DNA of 64,000 nt from an uncultured Verrucomicrobiota bacterium (lineage in GTDB: Bacteria; Verrucomicrobiota; Verrucomicrobiia; Limisphaerales; UBA1319): contig CAYPCQ010000012.1 of NCBI GenBank assembly GCA_964409245.1, forward strand, positions 30,747-94,746, given 5' to 3'. This document shows positions 8,158-48,249 of this stretch, one piece after another; position 1 is the stretch's first letter, and each line of letters opens with the position of its first letter. The notes beneath the pieces were generated by a model that was not told the DNA's origin, did not search any database, and was given only the letters and a program-made list of their open reading frames with translations. The position numbers and the translations under genes are program-made.

Positions 8158-8390
8158 TGCTCGAAAACGTCCGCTTCCATGCTGGCGCGGAACTGTTCCG
8201 AAGTAAGCGGGAAATCGCGGCTGGTGAGGAACCGGCGCATGCCCGAACCTGATGGCGTTTCGCGTGCCGGCAGGCTGTTGTCCGGCTCCAGGATGGTCAG
8301 CAGGGCGCGGGCCTTGACCGGGAGCTTCACGTCCCCGTGCGGCCGGACTCGGCCGTGGTCCAGCTCAACTTCAACCGTGTTATAGTGCAT
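8154..8390 (-). CDS. vapB: Antitoxin of the VapBC-type pair
   Basis: 78-aa ORF whose stop overlaps the vapC start by 4 nt (ATGA). Its size and position upstream of the PIN gene are typical of a type II toxin-antitoxin pair. Confidence 0.55.
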   Translation of the reverse strand: MHYNTVEVELDHGRVRPHGDVKLPVKARALLTILEPDNSLPARETPSGSGMRRFLTSRDFPLTSEQFRASMEADVFEQ

Positions 8391-32178: not shown

Positions 32179-32480
32179 ATTGAACCAAACAGAACCAATT
32201 GTCCGCTGAAAAAAAGATCATGGAAAGTGAGCAACGACCAGGCGGCATCTAAATGATGTCATCCGGCACAAAATTGAAAATGGCAGAGGCGAACCGGGAT
32301 TGGCCACCTATGGGGTGTGTCCGGAGCACGCCAGCAGAGCTGCCAAGGCGAATTTCCCGAATTTTAAATTTGAAGGGCTGCGGAGGAGGTGTGCCCCAAA
32401 ACACCGAAACGACCACCGTGAAAAACCTGTGGCTACGGAACGACCGACCGTAACGGTGTATGTTCTTTTTTGAAATGGCC

Positions 32481-32522
32481 GGGGCCAGGAGCAGTTGGAA
32501 TACTCCTGGCCCCTTTGAATTT
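32481..32522 (+). terminator. Rho-independent terminator (11-bp perfect stem)
   Basis: GGGGCCAGGAG / CTCCTGGCCCC (32481-32491 / 32503-32513), then TTTGAATTT. Confidence 0.65.
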
Positions 32523-32524
32523 CC

Positions 32525-32596
32525 GCGGCTGTGGTTAAACAGCAGAATATTTCTGGCAGGGAGAGCGTCCGGGCGCGATGCCCGGCGGCCGCACCG
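32525..32596 (+). ncRNA. Degenerate tRNA-like unit (first unit of the array)
   Basis: Acceptor GCGGCTG / CGGCCGC. T-arm CCGGG-CGCGATG-CCCGG, then discriminator A. The anticodon stem is weak (possible GGC). D-loop AAACAGCAG. Confidence 0.3.
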
Positions 32597-32723
32597 ATTT
32601 AAGAAAACCGTTTGCCCCCCAAACTTTCAGGCGGTTTTCAGCTATCATACGCCGGGCGCCAGCGAGCGCAGCCTGGTCTCCAAAACCGGGCCGGTTTGGG
32701 GCAGCACCAAAACGGCGTGCCAT

Positions 32724-32798
32724 GGGGTCGTGGCAGACAAGCAATGCACCTGCCCTGCAAGCAGGTTGATGCGGGAGCGTTACCCGCCGGCTCCACCA
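32724..32798 (+). tRNA. tRNA-Ala(TGC)-like, non-canonical elbow, C33
   Basis: Acceptor GGGGTCG / CGGCTCC with G3:U70. Perfect anticodon stem CCTGC/GCAGG with loop CCTGCAA. T-arm GCGGG-AGCGTTA-CCCGC. ACCA end encoded. D-loop lacks GG. Confidence 0.55.
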
Positions 32799-32804
32799 TT
32801 TCAC

Positions 32805-32877
32805 TGCGGGGAGAATGAGATTCAGGCGAGCCTCATAAACTCAGCCTCCGTGGGCGCAACTCCCACCCCCGCTGCCA
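32805..32877 (+). ncRNA. Degenerate tRNA-like unit with CTCATAA (CAT) loop
   Basis: T-arm GTGGG-CGCAACT-CCCAC. 6-bp acceptor GCGGGG/CCCCGC with a T1:T72 mismatch. G-CCA end. D-arm and anticodon stem are poor. Confidence 0.3.
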
Positions 32878-32882
32878 ATCTG

Positions 32883-32968
32883 GGGAGGTGTTCCGGCTGC
32901 CGGCCGGTAAAACCGGTGTCGCTAACAAGGGCCGGAAGTGACGACTGGAGCATTACCAGCACCTCCCA
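32883..32968 (+). ncRNA. tRNA-like unit of class-II length (86 nt)
   Basis: Perfect acceptor GGGAGGT / ACCTCCC. T-arm CTGG-AGCATTA-CCAG. The internal CCGG-rich arms are ambiguous. No CCA. Confidence 0.3.
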
Positions 32969-32975
32969 CTTTATT

Positions 32976-33047
32976 GGATCCGCAGCCCCATCAGCGGGCC
33001 AACCCGTTGCCTGCGGGAAGGCCGGGGTGTGAGCCCCTTCGGATCCA
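32976..33047 (+). ncRNA. tRNA-like unit, possible Gly(GCC)
   Basis: Perfect acceptor GGATCCG / CGGATCC. D-arm GCCC-CATCAGC-GGGC. Anticodon hairpin CCCG-TTGCCTG-CGGG. The T-arm is irregular (GGGG-TGTGAG-CCCC plus 2 nt). Confidence 0.35.
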
Positions 33048-33056
33048 ACACTTTAT

Positions 33057-33132
33057 CGGAGCGTAGCTCAGTCTTCAGAGCACCCGGCTTGGGCCCGGGA
33101 GGCCGCAGGTGAAAATCCTGCCGTTCCGACCA
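33057..33132 (+). tRNA. tRNA-Pro(TGG), non-canonical elbow
   Basis: Full cloverleaf: CGGAGCG-TA-GCTC-AGTCTTCA-GAGC-A-CCCGG-CTTGGGC-CCGGG-AGGCC-GCAGG-TGAAAAT-CCTGC-CGTTCCG-A-CCA. C1:G72 and A73 are Pro-type identity marks. The T-loop lacks T55C56 and the D-loop lacks GG. Confidence 0.7.
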
Positions 33133-33140
33133 TTTGACAG

Positions 33141-33216
33141 GCTGCCGTGGCCGAACAGATGGGGCATTCGCCTCCGAAGCGAATCGATGCGGGTGCGATT
33201 CCCGCCGGCAGCTCCA
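33141..33216 (+). tRNA. tRNA-Arg(CCG), non-canonical elbow
   Basis: Acceptor GCTGCCG/CGGCAGC is perfect. Anticodon arm TTCGC-CTCCGAA-GCGAA. T-arm GCGGG-TGCGATT-CCCGC. T-CCA end. D-loop AACAGATG. Confidence 0.7.
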
Positions 33217-33228
33217 AGCCCGTTCCGC

Positions 33229-33305
33229 GCTCCCAAGGTGTAAGCAGACTGCACACCTCCCTGCGAAGGAGGAAGCTCGTGGTGCAAATCCATGTGGGAG
33301 CGCCA
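33229..33305 (+). tRNA. tRNA-Arg(GCG), non-canonical elbow and rare anticodon
   Basis: Acceptor GCTCCCA/TGGGAGC is perfect. D-arm GTGT-AAGCAGACT-GCAC. Anticodon arm CCTCC-CTGCGAA-GGAGG. T-arm CGTGG-TGCAAAT-CCATG. G-CCA end. Confidence 0.7.
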
Positions 33306-33312
33306 GCTTCAT

Positions 33313-33387
33313 GGTGATCCTGATGTAACAGCAGCATCACGCCCTGTGAAGGCGTTTGTGCCGGTGCGAATCCGGTTGATCACCCCA
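33313..33387 (+). tRNA. tRNA-His(GTG) with encoded G-1, non-canonical elbow
   Basis: G-1 plus GTGATCC / TGATCAC, with discriminator C (G-1:C73 is the His identity mark). Anticodon arm ACGCC-CTGTGAA-GGCGT. T-arm GCCGG-TGCGAAT-CCGGT. CCA encoded. Confidence 0.7.
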
Positions 33388-33609
33388 TTGGCAGTGCGCC
33401 AACGCTTTTTGTCCGGGCCTGGTGGCCTGGACGGTTCAAGGACGTCCTGCCAGTGGCGCGATTCGGGAGCAACCCGGGCGGGCGGGCCGCGCGGCAGCAG
33501 TCTCTTAAACCGCGGAGCACGGGGCAATTCATCATTCAGCTGCTGAGGCTGGACATTTCCGGCCGCATTTTGCGATTCAAAAACAATCCATATTAAAAAG
33601 GAGGTAATC

Positions 33610-35455: not shown

Positions 35456-35586
35456 ACACCACGCAATCGGCCGGAAGTCACAAGCAAGCTCAATGGTAGA
35501 GCATCTGTTCCAGGAACAGACGGTAGCCGGTTCAATTCCGGCGCTAATCCAAAAACTTCTGCCCACTCGCGTGGTGTTCCCTTTTT
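35456..35586 (+). ncRNA. Y-RNA / YrlA-like ncRNA: long bulged closing helix + tRNA-like D-arm/T-arm module
   Basis: The two ends pair over about 22 positions. 35456-35464 ACACCACGC pairs with 35569-35577 GCGTGGTGT, and 35469-35478 pairs with 35555-35563, with bulged C at 35471 and 35568. The helix encloses GCTC-AATGGTA-GAGC (canonical D-arm with GG) and GCCGG-TTCAATT-CCGGC (canonical T-arm). The 'anticodon arm' is a 7-bp palindrome with a 3-nt loop (TCTGTTC-CAG-GAACAGA). The acceptor stem is degenerate. The helix is followed by CCCTTTTTG. Confidence 0.5.
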
Positions 35587-35642: not shown

Positions 35643-36467
35643 ATGGACTATACGCCGTTCCTGCAAAAACCAGATGAATGGCTGCGGCTCCCTTATTTCG
35701 AGGGCAAATCTGTCTGCAGCGACCGCCAGGGCTACCGCCTCCGGGAAACCCTGCAACCCGGCTGGTATCAATTCCGGAAATCGGGCCGCTACCTGGAAGC
35801 CGGGCGCCGGATCGAGCCGGAGCCGGACGCCTGGAAACTGCCGCGCGTGGGCGGCTACGAGATGGACGGCCGCCTCTTTGGCAACGACTCGCAGGCGCGC
35901 CTGTTCGGTTTGCCCACGGAAATGGACCTGCCGAAGTTCACGCCGATTTCCGCGCGCAAATGGTTCGATGGACACCTGTTGTTCCACGGCCAGGAGTTCG
36001 AGACCGGGGTGGAAGCGCAGGTCCGGGAAGCGTTCGAGGAGGAGCATTCCATTGATGCCATCAAAGGCGTGACCCCGGCGCTGGCGCAGGTATTTGTCCT
36101 GGAGCATGCCCGGCGCGAGCTGGCCCGCGAGGCGGAACGGCGCGCCCGCGAAGAAGCCGCGCGGCAGCAGCAGCAGGCCGAGCTGGCGCGCTGGCAGGAA
36201 ACCCTGGAAGGCCGCCTCAGCCTGGCCTTGTCCCACACTGGGGCGGAGCTGGTCAGCTGGCGCCGCAACGGCGCGCGCCAGGCCGTGGTCCGCTACCGCA
36301 TTGCCCGGAGGCGCTTTGAATGCATCATCGACAGCGAATCCCTGCAAATCCTGGATGCCGGCATCTGCCTGGAGGGCGCCGACGAAGCATTGAACTTGTC
36401 CAGCCTGCCCTCCGCTGTGCGCGAGGCGGCTGACTCCGGGCGATTACATGTTTTTCGGCCAGCCTGA
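35643..36467 (+). CDS. Unknown protein: N-terminal globular domain + Arg/Glu/Gln-rich coiled coil + small C-terminal domain
   Basis: 274-aa ORF with coding periodicity. Central LAREAERRAREEAARQQQQAELARWQETLE. I recognise no family motif and no HPN-Cys E2 signature. It is the first gene of a tightly spaced operon with the JAB, Ubl and E1 genes. Confidence 0.5.
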   Translation: MDYTPFLQKPDEWLRLPYFEGKSVCSDRQGYRLRETLQPGWYQFRKSGRYLEAGRRIEPEPDAWKLPRVGGYEMDGRLFGNDSQARLFGLPTEMDLPKFTPISARKWFDGHLLFHGQEFETGVEAQVREAFEEEHSIDAIKGVTPALAQVFVLEHARRELAREAERRAREEAARQQQQAELARWQETLEGRLSLALSHTGAELVSWRRNGARQAVVRYRIARRRFECIIDSESLQILDAGICLEGADEALNLSSLPSAVREAADSGRLHVFRPA

Positions 36468-36482
36468 GCCGGCCTCATCCCT

Positions 36483-36953
36483 ATGCGCGAAGTCTGTTTA
36501 ATCCTGGCCGGAGACAAAATCATCCGGGCGTATTTTGGGTCGCAAACCAAAATCCCCGACACGCCGGAACGCTGGGAAATCATCTGGGAGCACCGGCAGG
36601 AGATCACCGAAATCGCCCATTCCCACCCGGGCAATTTGCTGGAGTTCTCTCCCGAGGATCTCACCACGATGGAGGCCATCGAAGCCGGCGCCGGGAAGGA
36701 ATTCACCTGGTCCATCGTCACCCAGGCCGGATTCCGGTCCCGCCAGGGCGGGCGGGATATCCGGCGGTCCGGTTCGCCGTGGTGGGTGGGCCTGCTGCGC
36801 CACCTTTCTTATGCGTGTTCAGGCCATGGGGAGGGAAGTAATTGCGCCGCCGATTTTTCGCCAGCCGCGAAGGGAGTCGTGAGTCCCGATCCGATTGGGC
36901 CCCATGACGAAGGGCTTATGGCGGACCGCAGTCCAATAAAACAATCCGATTGA
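36483..36953 (+). CDS. Minimal JAMM/JAB (MPN+) metallopeptidase
   Basis: Exact JAMM motif AHSHPGNLLEFSPEDL (HxH-x7-S-xx-D), with an upstream Glu (EIIWEH...). Lies 15 nt after the preceding gene. Confidence 0.7.
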   Translation: MREVCLILAGDKIIRAYFGSQTKIPDTPERWEIIWEHRQEITEIAHSHPGNLLEFSPEDLTTMEAIEAGAGKEFTWSIVTQAGFRSRQGGRDIRRSGSPWWVGLLRHLSYACSGHGEGSNCAADFSPAAKGVVSPDPIGPHDEGLMADRSPIKQSD

Positions 36954-36969
36954 GAAAGGAAAAAATGAA

Positions 36970-37218
36970 ATGAACGAAAATAATGTATTGATCAACATCA
37001 CCTGGCAGGGCCAGAGCGGCAATTACGTGGTCCGGCTGGATCCGGGCGTGGACGATGCCACCATCCGCAACCTCTGCGAGGAAGCCGTGCGCTCGGGCGA
37101 AGTGCCGGGCATCCGGCCGAACATCCCGAAGCACGCCTTTGCCAACTTCGTGATCGACCGGTTCCACGGCGGCCAGGCGCGTTTTGTGGTGCGGCCGAAG
37201 GTGCCCTTCGGCGTTTAA
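36970..37218 (+). CDS. Ubiquitin-like (beta-grasp) small protein ending ...VPFG-V
   Basis: 82 aa. The predicted beta-beta-alpha-...-beta pattern (VLINITW / YVVRLD / DATIRNLCEEAVR / RFVVRPKV) fits a beta-grasp fold. A penultimate Gly is followed by a single residue. The gene lies between the JAB and E1 genes. Confidence 0.5.
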   Translation: MNENNVLINITWQGQSGNYVVRLDPGVDDATIRNLCEEAVRSGEVPGIRPNIPKHAFANFVIDRFHGGQARFVVRPKVPFGV

Positions 37219-37227
37219 CTGAAAGCC

Positions 37228-47020: not shown

Positions 47021-47680
47021 ATGATGAAAAATAAAACACTGTTACTGACCGCCGTCCTCGGTGCGGCGAGCTTGGCCACCGCGGTGGCACAAACTGTTTA
47101 TTCAGTGAACGCCGTTGGCTATGTCAACGTCACCGTTCCCGCCGGGAAGTTCGCCTTGCTGACGAATCCCTTGAACCAGCCCACCAATTCGCTGGCGGCT
47201 GTGTTGCCGGACGTTCCGGCCAATACGTTGGTTTACGCCTACAATTCGGCCTCCTCGACCTTCGCGACGTTCACCAAACGTACGACGGGTTGGACGGGCA
47301 CGGGCGCCGCAACGGCAACGTTGAATCCTGGCCAAGGCTTCTTCATCAAGAACGCCGGAACCACCGATTTCACCATCACCTTCGTGGGCGAAGTTCCCCA
47401 AGGCACGGATCTGACGGTGAATTATGTTGCTGGTTTTAACCTGATCGGCTCCATTGTTCCCCAAGCGGGCAAACTGGAAACGGATCTGAAGTTCCCGGCC
47501 GTCGCCAACGATAAGGCCTATGTCTTCAGCACCGCCACCCAAGGTTATACCACCTTCACCCGCCGGGCCAGCAGCTGGACGGGCGGCACCGGCGAACCCA
47601 CGCTCGACGTGGCCGGGGCTATGTTCTATCAAGCCGGCGCAGCTGGCGCCTGGAAACGCACCTTTAGCGTGAATCAGTAG
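47021..47680 (+). CDS. Secreted protein made of two internally duplicated about 90-aa modules
   Basis: Signal peptide MMKNKTLLLTAVLGAASLATAVA. Module 1 VGYVNVTVPAGKFALLTNPL...FATFTKRTTGWTG. Module 2 VAGFNLIGSIVPQAG...YTTFTRRASSWTG. Confidence 0.6.
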   Translation: MMKNKTLLLTAVLGAASLATAVAQTVYSVNAVGYVNVTVPAGKFALLTNPLNQPTNSLAAVLPDVPANTLVYAYNSASSTFATFTKRTTGWTGTGAATATLNPGQGFFIKNAGTTDFTITFVGEVPQGTDLTVNYVAGFNLIGSIVPQAGKLETDLKFPAVANDKAYVFSTATQGYTTFTRRASSWTGGTGEPTLDVAGAMFYQAGAAGAWKRTFSVNQ

Positions 47681-47718
47681 TAAACAACCAAAACCAAAAA
47701 CTAACAGACCAACTAACT

Positions 47719-48249
47719 ATGAAAAGACTAGCATTACTTGCAGCCTTGATCATCGGTTCGGCTGCCTCCTCCTTCGCGGCGGTGGGCACCGTTATGTTAA
47801 ACAACTACGATGCCGATAAGGCCGTATTCTTGGATGCCGTCGGCACCAAGGCTCCCATGGACAGCGTGTTCTTTGAACTGCTGGGCAATGGCGCTCTGGT
47901 TCAGAATACTTCCGACAGCTCCACCAAGTGGGCCGTCAATGCCGAAGCCGGCTATTTCGATACTGGCGTGGGCGTTGTCCCTGGTGTTGCCGCCAATGCG
48001 ACCGGAGTGAATTTTGAACTCCGCGGCTATGTCGGTTCGAGCTGGGCCACGGCCACCAAGGTCGGCTCCATCACTTGGACCCAAGCGGTCGGCAGCTGGG
48101 ACAATACAGCCCAGCCCCCGGCGCCCCCTTCAGGCGCTGTGCTGGCCCTCCCTGGCAGCCTGCTCGTCAAAACCGCCGTTCCTGAGCCTTCCACGATCGC
48201 TCTGGGGCTGCTTGGCGCCGCCGCGTTGCTGATCCGCCGCCGCAAGTAG
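47719..48249 (+). CDS. PEP-CTERM sorting-domain protein
   Basis: Signal peptide. C-terminal VPEPSTIALGLLGAAALLIRRRK. Confidence 0.8.
   Translation: MKRLALLAALIIGSAASSFAAVGTVMLNNYDADKAVFLDAVGTKAPMDSVFFELLGNGALVQNTSDSSTKWAVNAEAGYFDTGVGVVPGVAANATGVNFELRGYVGSSWATATKVGSITWTQAVGSWDNTAQPPAPPSGAVLALPGSLLVKTAVPEPSTIALGLLGAAALLIRRRK

Follow-up and report, generated by a model that had tools for sequence, protein, structure and literature searches.

How far can the elbow of a tRNA be rewritten while the molecule still passes for a tRNA, and what might be gained by rewriting it? The question is raised by a tandem array of tRNA and tRNA-like units on the forward strand of a 64,000-nucleotide stretch of DNA (the window) from an uncultured Verrucomicrobiota bacterium (contig CAYPCQ010000012.1). 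The array opens a cassette, some 5.4 kb long, that goes on with a candidate Ro60-like protein, a Y-RNA-like RNA, a 274-aa protein, a JAB-type protein, an 82-aa protein and a ThiF-type E1 enzyme. Few nucleotides in biology vary as little as U55, present as pseudouridine (Ψ55), and G18, and textbook tRNA architecture, the modifications Ψ55 and Gm18 (2'-O-methylated G18) and many tRNA-binding proteins presuppose them. As far as the sequences can tell, the G18•U55 contact is here replaced by A18•G55 while the 19:56 pair stays Watson-Crick, and the array of the window is one local case of a pattern that extends far beyond it. Our confidence, on sequence grounds, that the tRNAs are functional is much greater than our confidence in any reason for the change of their elbow.

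tRNAs were called with ARAGORN on the 64-kb window and with the Rfam tRNA model (RF00005, gathering score 29). ARAGORN calls five tRNAs, all in the array, and nothing else in the window; the Rfam model returns three of these at its gathering threshold when the whole window is searched and all five when the search is confined to the array region (E-values 1e-6 to 9e-12; positions and scores in Table 1). All five have an encoded CCA, and U33 with a purine at 37 in a seven-nucleotide anticodon loop; the last four (Pro, Arg, Arg and His) are separated by spacers of 8, 12 and 7 nt. Synthetase identity marks are present as G3:U70 with A73 in tRNA-Ala, C1:G72 with A73 in tRNA-Pro, G-1 opposite C73 in tRNA-His and A20 in both tRNA-Arg. 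What sets these tRNAs apart is the conserved elbow set G18, G19, U54, U55 and C56, from which all five depart without thereby leaving the family. G55 is found in all of them and C56 in four, the exception being tRNA-Pro. In tRNA-Ala the D-loop GACAAGCAA (A18 G19) faces the T-loop AGCGTTA (A54 G55 C56 ... T58), in tRNA-Arg(CCG) GAACAGATGG (CAGA; A18 G19 A20) faces TGCGATT, in tRNA-Arg(GCG) TAAGCAGACTG (A18 G19 A20) faces TGCAAAT and in tRNA-His AACAGCA (A18 G19) faces TGCGAAT. In tRNA-Pro, AGTCTTCA faces TGAAAAT (G55 A56) with a probable U19:A56 pair, and this variant recurs in the related locus L011. Apart from that of tRNA-Pro, the D-loops read AG at the site of G18-G19, and therefore G19 is kept and only G18 is replaced.

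The initial annotation of this DNA, made from the letters alone, had placed five complete CCA-bearing tRNAs here, with identity marks in Ala, Pro and His, G55 in every T-loop and C56 in four, and had left their folds to covariance models. All of this stands, the models accepting the folds at 41.0-60.7 bits against 29 and the marks being retained across isotypes in the whole data set. It went astray in holding that G18G19 is absent, for the D-loops carry AG, with G19:C56 kept in four of the five. Its exchange of T54/A58 for A54/T58 in two units is right for tRNA-Ala, but the second case lies in a Tyr-type unit outside the five called tRNAs, and its nine units are better counted as about ten, not all alike. 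It missed the wide occurrence of this elbow in the tRNA arrays of phages and the physical linkage of the array to an operon for a Ro60-like protein and a Y-RNA-like RNA.

The evidence that the two sides of the elbow change together comes from comparison. Related loci (cited by L numbers, as are viral loci below) were contigs encoding the Ro60-like protein, taken from an assembly collection and from GTDB genomes and amounting to about a dozen distinct loci. When the window and 16 related loci were pooled, 98 unique tRNAs were obtained, of which 64 have G55C56, 63 of them with an AG D-loop, and 26 have U55C56, with GG in 26/26. Six more have G55A56 and two G55G56, and their D-loops offer U and C, respectively, at the place facing 56. 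An unambiguously alignable subset, 7-nt D-loops on a 4-bp stem, was then drawn from the 1,010 unique tRNAs collected overall. Among the 81 with U55C56, G stands at loop position 4 in 80 and at position 5 in 76; among the 91 with G55C56, position 4 holds A in 90 and position 5 holds G in every one. The association between 18 and 55 has a Fisher p of 3e-49, which is nominal because the tRNAs compared are related by descent. The elbow change is thus, judged from these alignments, a compensated co-variation and not decay, as the initial annotation had proposed from a handful of loops. Nor does it seem to be a trait of the lineage. Canonical G18G19/U55C56 tRNAs share contigs with G55 arrays (for example an opposite-strand tRNA-Pro(CGG) in L002), some array members are canonical (Arg-tcg, Glu-ttc and Met), and the tRNA-like module of the Y-RNA-like RNA has the canonical elbow AATGGTA / TTCAATT that had been noted for it; the comparison covers the tRNAs of these contigs. 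In the searchable literature, with subscription journals outside its scope, no description was found of an A18•G55 elbow or of G55 in phage tRNAs.

Might the odd loops nonetheless be mutational damage in a graveyard of pseudogenes? The rest of the array gives this some colour. Within 863 nt, all on the + strand, there are five tRNAs and five tRNA-like units, so that the array holds about ten units: five sound tRNAs, two atypical, two decaying and one unclassified. The five units that were not called give no hit at E<=10 with the Rfam tRNA model and were sought by ARAGORN at a lowered threshold, minimum free energy (MFE) folds and blastn to related loci. The first is a decayed G55-type tRNA-Gly (T-loop CGCGATG, CAG in the D-loop) whose 3' end reads ACCG, not ACCA, and which aligns to an intact tRNA-Gly(gcc) of L006 (1247-1321), its own anticodon stem being disrupted. 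The degenerate tRNA-Asp relative has a 6-nt T-loop and no CCA, and matches L011 8296-8369 at 81% in blastn, where ARAGORN calls a tRNA-Asp(gtc) at 8298-8373. The Tyr-type unit, with a long variable arm and the T-loop AGCATTA (A54 G55 C56 ... T58), has the anticodon loop CGGTAAA in the window as against CTGTAAA in its homologs, and the loop is mutated differently in L006; compensatory changes are seen in 7/18 of its pairs among five homologs. The unit with a CAU anticodon combines an invariant CUCAUAA anticodon loop with a reduced D arm, a 1:72 mismatch, a CCA end and the T-loop CGCAACT (G55 C56), and shows compensatory changes in 6/16 pairs among six homologs, viral L031 and L063 included. The unclassified unit is a cloverleaf-like RNA with a closing stem of 9-10 bp, three hairpins and the end ...GCACCA, and has blastn homologs in L002, L006, L010, L016 and the viral locus L053. 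One of its hairpin loops, CUCCAAA, is like a Trp anticodon loop placed where the T arm would be expected. All four uncalled units between 32606 and 33050 have blastn homologs in related loci, and two have them in viral contigs. An open reading frame across this part (32460-33032, 190 aa) was rejected as a gene: its GC content at third codon positions is 0.66, against more than 0.8 in neighbouring genes, and it overlies the tRNAs.

The damage reading can thus point to the decayed Gly and degenerate Asp units, to the mutated Tyr-type anticodon loop and to a close relative that lacks four of the tRNAs. It is scarcely credible for the five called tRNAs, which have intact stems, CCA, identity elements and scores of 41-61 bits; decay could not yield the same two coupled substitutions in hundreds of tRNAs.

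Hundreds of such tRNAs are encoded by phages. IMG/VR was searched for a pattern of two adjacent G55 T-arms (GGTGCRANTCC, 55-85 nt, GGTGCRANTCC), which is present in at least 120 contigs of uncultivated phages, so that the search for other G55 arrays suggested at the outset was productive in viruses as well as in related loci. Among the matches listed, ARAGORN finds 912 unique tRNAs, 363 of them G55C56 (318 with AG and no GG) and 501 U55C56 (492 with GG). The viral G55 loci span 36-69% GC and lie near portal, head-protease, tail-fibre and T4-like portal genes; some arrays are all-G55 (18/18) and mixed ones are common. In eight cultured phages (CcrRogue, Phosso, RVTF4, DSL-LC01, Alice, Tomas, Woes and StAB) G55 occurs in 0/96 tRNAs, and when the window array and two G55 arrays of viral origin were compared by BLAST with cultured phages and plasmids, the matches were confined to single tRNAs. 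Bona fide TROVE+VWA genes, the domain pair of Ro60 proteins, stand beside all-G55 arrays in L085/L145, L124/L148 and L147. Forty-eight viral loci (L145-L192) were therefore of use as a set chosen solely for a TROVE/Ro60 gene: 22 have tRNAs nearby, and about 10/48 have at least seven tRNAs within 10 kb. The arrays selected this way are almost all-G55 (21/21, 29/36, 10/11) or all-U55 (0/38, 0/23, 0/20, 0/19), and because they are nearly all-or-none the elbow type suggests a property or cause at the level of the whole genome.

Such a distribution bears on two explanations in which nothing is being evaded. One is that A18•G55 makes an elbow independent of modification, which would lock the D- and T-loops without Ψ55, m5U54 (5-methylated U54), Gm18 or chaperoning by TruB and TrmA, and would be useful in burst expression when these enzymes are saturated. 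G can sit at a U-turn, and the 55-58 sequences GCGA/GCAA, to judge from the T-loops, would fit a GNRA turn; exactly the substrates of TruB and TrmH are removed, the change is found in many phages across the whole of the above GC range, and arrays are often all-G55 per genome. We regard this as doubtful, given that U55 suffices in many arrays, the 96/96 tRNAs of the eight cultured phages and large Ro60-linked arrays among them, and that mixed arrays are common. The other is that A18/G55 is a neutral compensated variant, fixed by drift in a few ancestral sets and inherited through duplication and movement of arrays. The state is certainly heritable and stable: among nearest relatives at >=80% identity in other loci, a G55 tRNA has a G55 relative in 89 cases and a U55 relative in 4, most collected tRNAs having no relative at that identity, so that a nearest-neighbour count of independent switches was not feasible. 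Drift is nevertheless unlikely as the explanation. Both states occur inside the same isotype families, as in class-I tRNA-Leu with the D-loops CAAYNGGCAGA and CAAYNAGCAGA, and the G55 variant spans very different GC and both Verrucomicrobiota and phage settings; tRNA-Ser is nearly exempt; and a change needing two steps, at the tertiary contact best conserved in tRNAs, would hardly arise by drift again and again.

Signs of function are spread over the whole G55 set. U33 and a purine at 37 are retained in 399/440 G55 tRNAs, and isotype marks are kept about as well as in the U55 tRNAs of the same loci: G3:U70 in Ala (13/16), A73 in Pro (26/26), Lys (19/19), Leu (61/63), Val (13/13) and Tyr (11/11), U73 in Cys (17/18) and Thr (25/26), G73 in Asp (12/13), and mostly G-1 with C73 in His. 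G55 is found in all isotypes but Ser, where there are 2 G55 against 57 (Fisher p = 4e-13, nominal; window plus L001-L136). Seryl-tRNA synthetase touches the variable arm and the elbow region, and the near gap suggests a constraint from this synthetase or from the long variable arm. The G55 tRNAs look chargeable rather than decayed, and because identity is kept isotype by isotype and G55 is nearly absent from tRNA-Ser, selection for aminoacylation is indicated and the decoy proposed in the initial annotation is disfavoured.

The same evidence weighs on the broader idea that these RNAs act outside of translation, as amino-acid donors, as ligands, baits or decoys for the Ro60-like/Y-RNA particle, or as toxin baits. 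There is a precedent in the non-proteinogenic tRNA-Gly of Staphylococcus aureus, which lacks G18G19 and U55C56 and is used outside translation (PMC4574755); linkage of the array to the Ro60-like protein is tight, Ro60 proteins bind misfolded or tRNA-like RNAs (PMC7824862), and some array units are atypical. The staphylococcal species, like the G55 tRNAs, are natural bacterial tRNAs off the elbow consensus, and the G55 set would share their chargeability. They are, however, of one isotype, with U18 or C18 and U19 and no 19:56 pairing, and come from chromosomal housekeeping genes for cell-wall synthesis, whereas the G55 tRNAs comprise nearly all isotypes, have normal anticodon loops and isotype-specific identity elements, keep 19:56 and co-vary at 18/55. 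G55 also occurs in phages without a Ro60 gene nearby in the stretch fetched, and Pfam, NCBIfam and PADLOC scans of the cassette reveal no transferase of the Fem type or gene like it. A non-translational role is for these reasons very improbable.

Two isotypes merit separate remark. The tRNA-Leu of Ro60-like-linked arrays are all class I, with a short variable loop, the D-loop CAAYNRGCAGA and A73 (sites in Table 1); the long-arm class II is the usual bacterial form. The annotations of Streptomyces phage Tomas and Corynebacterium phage StAB include class-I tRNA-Leu with a canonical elbow, and tRNA-Leu in the viral loci divide into 76 with a short and 45 with a long variable arm. The GCG anticodon of the second tRNA-Arg of the window recurs in L002 and L011; CGY codons in bacteria are usually decoded by an ACG anticodon, modified to ICG.

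The cassette in which the array lies recurs mostly in Verrucomicrobiota metagenome-assembled genomes (MAGs), with two sources of Leptospirales type and one bin labelled Terriglobales. The operon is the same across related loci and the flanking genes differ (as in L001-L003). Every Verrucomicrobiota-type locus fetched has same-strand tRNA arrays, of up to about 20 tRNAs, adjoining the operon, with further ones within or behind it in some cases; the Leptospirales-type loci (L001/L015 and L013) have the operon without a G55 array. The closest relative, L006, has a Ro60-like gene 95% identical to that of the window and tracks the window 10 nt into tRNA-Pro; the Pro, Arg, Arg and His genes are then missing, and the two sequences match again from some 60 nt ahead of the start codon of the Ro60-like gene. 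From the varied flanks, the tRNA-Gly pseudogene and this four-tRNA indel it follows that the cassette is mobile and that the array is accessory and turns over fast, in keeping with the island-borne character first ascribed to it. Beyond 32.4 kb and 37.8 kb the genes of the window are ordinary chromosomal ones (glycoside hydrolases, a histidine kinase, formate-tetrahydrofolate ligase and a type II/IV secretion ATPase). IMG/VR gave no member of the Verrucomicrobiota Ro60-like family, and the 120 viral loci examined encode no protein of the cassette; in this material no evidence was found that the cassette itself is viral. A simple scan detects no sigma-70-like promoter for the array. The terminator-like hairpin directly 3' of tRNA-His is weak, the count of such sites in the region not being above shuffled expectation. 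Segments of lower GC lie elsewhere in the window, at 1-2000 (0.48) and 46001-48000 (0.57), its average being about 0.65.

The protein encoded next to the array has a helical N-terminal part and a C-terminal vWA domain. It has a Pfam VWA_2 match and no match to Pfam TROVE, NCBIfam or PDB sequences, nor an exact-sequence record; of its 1,308 homologs only a few have a named source, in each case a Verrucomicrobiota MAG. An AlphaFold2 (AF2) model built from 25 homologs has a mean predicted local distance difference test score (pLDDT) of 75 and a predicted TM-score (pTM) of 0.45. Its best full-length Foldseek matches in the PDB are the TROVE/Ro60 structures 9kop, 9nfa and 1yvp (E 7e-8 to 4e-7), with TM-scores of only 0.3-0.45, and so on the strength of the model the protein is a candidate Ro60-like protein. 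The RNA downstream fits this assignment in its architecture: a closing stem CACCACGC...GCGTGGTG and an inner helix GCAATCGG..GGAAGTYACAAGC / ACTTC..CACTCGC surround a tRNA-like module whose acceptor stem is mismatched and which lacks CCA. In an alignment of eight loci the inner helix is conserved, the outer stem co-varies (14/32 pairs compensatory) and the elbow of the module is canonical in every locus. Four related loci carry two or three Y-like RNAs in tandem, which share the stem ACGCAATCGG..GGAAGTYACAAGC ... ACTTC..CACTCGCG and vary in their inner modules (tRNA-like, short hairpin or T-arm-only). In L002 an Acido-Lenti-1 RNA (RF01687) is matched just 3' of the Y-like RNA, within the cassette.

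Four genes follow the Ro60-like gene and the Y-like RNA, as a set, in the window and in L001-L003. The 274-aa protein has no Pfam, NCBIfam or PADLOC match and no Foldseek PDB match below E = 0.1 (AF2 pLDDT 66); it has 218 close homologs, which among the matches listed are all at least 70% identical. The JAB and 82-aa proteins have no PDB sequence match and the latter has no family match either; from its place beside the E1/JAB pair, the 82-aa protein may possibly be their ubiquitin-like partner. The 190-aa ThiF/E1 protein is matched by PADLOC E1-E2 models, its best PDB sequence matches being Uba4, UBA5 and ThiF. The four together look like a ubiquitin-like activation and trimming set, and no description was found of the combination of 274-aa, JAB, 82-aa and E1 proteins with Ro60. 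In some relatives other genes intrude or abut: a VapBC-like small gene and a PIN-domain gene lie between the Ro60-like gene and the Y-like RNAs of L003, and also in L004 and L005, and a Wadjet (JetABCD-like) system abuts the cassette in a Leptonemataceae genome. These neighbours fit a defence-island setting.

Table 1. Positions of the array units, the cassette components and selected features of related and viral loci (window coordinates unless a locus is named).
Feature	Position	Strand	Basis
Decayed G55-type tRNA-Gly(GCC) pseudogene	32525-32595	+	ARAGORN, lowered threshold only
Conserved cloverleaf-like RNA of unclear type	32606-32716	+	MFE fold, blastn homologs
tRNA-Ala(UGC)	32724-32798	+	ARAGORN; Rfam 42.0 bits
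Atypical tRNA, CAU anticodon	32805-32877	+	Alignment and consensus fold, six homologs
Tyr(GUA)-type tRNA-like unit	32883-32969	+	ARAGORN, lowered threshold; alignment, five homologs
Degenerate G55-type tRNA-Asp relative	32976-33050	+	blastn; MFE cloverleaf
tRNA-Pro(UGG)	33057-33132	+	ARAGORN; Rfam 60.7 bits
tRNA-Arg(CCG)	33141-33216	+	ARAGORN; Rfam 53.6 bits
tRNA-Arg(GCG)	33229-33305	+	ARAGORN; Rfam 47.7 bits
tRNA-His(GUG)	33313-33387	+	ARAGORN (33314-33387, G-1 at 33313); Rfam 41.0 bits
Terminator-like hairpin and T-run	33388-33410	+	Consensus scan; weak
Divergent candidate Ro60-like protein, 597 aa	33610-35403	+	Pfam VWA_2; AF2 and Foldseek
Y-RNA-like RNA	35457-35576	+	Rfam tRNA 41.5 bits at 35479-35550
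Conserved 274-aa protein	35643-36467	+	Present in homologous loci with gene content listed
JAB/JAMM-type metallopeptidase-like protein, HSHPx7SxxD	36483-36953	+	Weak Prok-JAB Pfam match, below curated cut-off
82-aa protein ending ...PFGV	36970-37218	+	Operon position conserved
Minimal ThiF/E1-type adenylyltransferase, 190 aa	37228-37800	+	Pfam ThiF 2.6e-21
Four-gene set 3' of Ro60-like gene and Y-like RNA	35643-37800; L001 12645-14895; L002 12515-14211; L003 13614-15821
Class-I tRNA-Leu sites	L002 9609-9685; L003 16906-17247; L014 4391-5830; L016 8693-8848; phage L142 6001-6075; phage L144 1999-2075
Tandem Y-like RNAs	L007 4650-4930; L008 4868-5110; L009 11820-12110; L011 11880-12170
Acido-Lenti-1 RNA match	L002 12225-12270		Rfam, 40.8 bits against a threshold of 37
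VapBC-like small gene and PIN-domain gene	L003 11882-12591
Wadjet (JetABCD-like) system	L001 14925-21800

Taken together, the explanation towards which we lean, on balance and with some reserve, is that the array supplies a back-up of tRNAs fit for translation, carried within an RNA-damage or conflict cassette, and that their elbow was altered to escape an enzyme that reads or cuts the ordinary form. The tRNAs would be of the accessory type known from phages and mobile elements, would take up the normal L shape, be charged by host synthetases and be usable in translation. G55 would hold the turn of the T-loop in place of the U of the U-turn, with GCGA or GCAA at 55-58 in most of them, and A18 would intercalate as G18 does, touching G55. 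The flat stacking face that RNase P and the ribosome meet should be preserved because the outer 19:56 pair stays Watson-Crick, and with this face unchanged the tRNAs would still be substrates for RNase P, synthetases, EF-Tu and the ribosome. What the change would take away are the bases on which Ψ55 formation by TruB, Gm18 formation by TrmH and any other reader of G18 or U55 depend. The cassette would then be a module for RNA damage or conflict, whose tRNAs sustain translation once the ordinary ones are under attack or in short supply, and escape from a nuclease or other enzyme that reads the elbow or the T-loop is our preferred reason for the change. What we infer, as opposed to observe, is that the genes are expressed and their products charged, how A18 and G55 touch each other, and why the change came about.

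Several results tell against this account. Neither the cassette nor the phage loci examined yielded a factor that would read the elbow, and the genes near all-G55 phage arrays that were considered for the part (methyltransferases, an HNH endonuclease, a phosphoesterase and a portal protein) gave no candidate. There is no RNA ligase, cyclase or other recognisable repair enzyme in the cassette, and for four of its five proteins the function is generic or not assignable. Because Ro60 genes also adjoin large all-U55 arrays, the Ro60 link is one with tRNA arrays in general and not with G55. The array is at least in part dispensable, given that several units are decaying or atypical and that a close relative has lost four tRNAs. 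Lastly, the shared descent of the tRNAs leaves the p-values with nominal weight only.

A related possibility, which we put forward tentatively, is that A18•G55 is a second and heritable 'elbow code' by which a trans-acting factor tells tRNAs of phages and mobile elements from those of the cell, the Verrucomicrobiota cassette being a domesticated version equipped with a Ro60/Y-RNA surveillance particle. The factor could be a host nuclease acting on the T- or D-loop, a defence system, or a phage enzyme that destroys or disables host tRNAs; it would pass over G55 tRNAs, whose charging and decoding would go on.

How does the back-up reading sit with known systems? Reportedly the tRNAs of phage T5 evade host anticodon nucleases (PrrC, PARIS or retron effectors) by sequence changes, and Septu is reported to cleave the variable loop of tRNA-Tyr (PMC13096335). 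Escape through the elbow would be alike in that decoding is kept and the site read by a tRNA-targeting enzyme is changed; it differs in that the known cases concern the anticodon loop or stem, or the variable loop, of single tRNAs, whereas G55 affects the elbow of whole sets, with no cognate nuclease known. tRNA arrays on mobile elements and phages are described for the Anabaena trn operon 'L-arrays' (PMC8421152), for mycobacterial array units (PMC5966550) and for phage clusters (PMC6409571). Such arrays resemble that of the window in having mixed isotypes head to tail on one strand with short spacers, in being accessory, mobile and variable, and in the back-up role proposed for them in translational stress or defence; in the portions searched, nothing on a changed elbow was found. 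The window array is unlike the L-arrays in that most of its members have A18•G55 and in its fusion to the Ro60-like/Y-RNA/JAB/E1 cassette. Ro60 (Rsr)/Y RNA modules, for their part, are known from bacteria and phages, with 'ROT/TROVE' proteins in jumbo phages (PMC7824862). Like these modules (YrlA-type), the cassette has a vWA-bearing candidate for a ring protein, its predicted fold Ro60-like, followed by an RNA in which a stem encloses a tRNA-like module with a canonical elbow, and as in several phages it adjoins tRNA arrays; in Streptomyces phage Tomas an 'RO-like RNA binding protein' stands beside a tRNA array. It differs from them in that its protein lies beyond Pfam TROVE and in having no RtcB, RtcA or PNPase partner, with the 274-aa protein, JAB peptidase, 82-aa protein and minimal E1 in their stead.

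For the biology of these elements, the coupled A18•G55 exchange in several hundred otherwise functional-looking tRNAs, concentrated in phage and mobile arrays, amounts to a natural 'double-mutant cycle' for the tRNA elbow. It raises the idea that in conflicts between phage and host the elbow may serve to discriminate one tRNA pool from another, and makes A18•G55 tRNAs candidates for orthogonal or nuclease-resistant tRNAs. In the Verrucomicrobiota, the cassette ties such tRNA arrays to what would be a very divergent Ro60/Y-RNA system together with an E1/JAB set.

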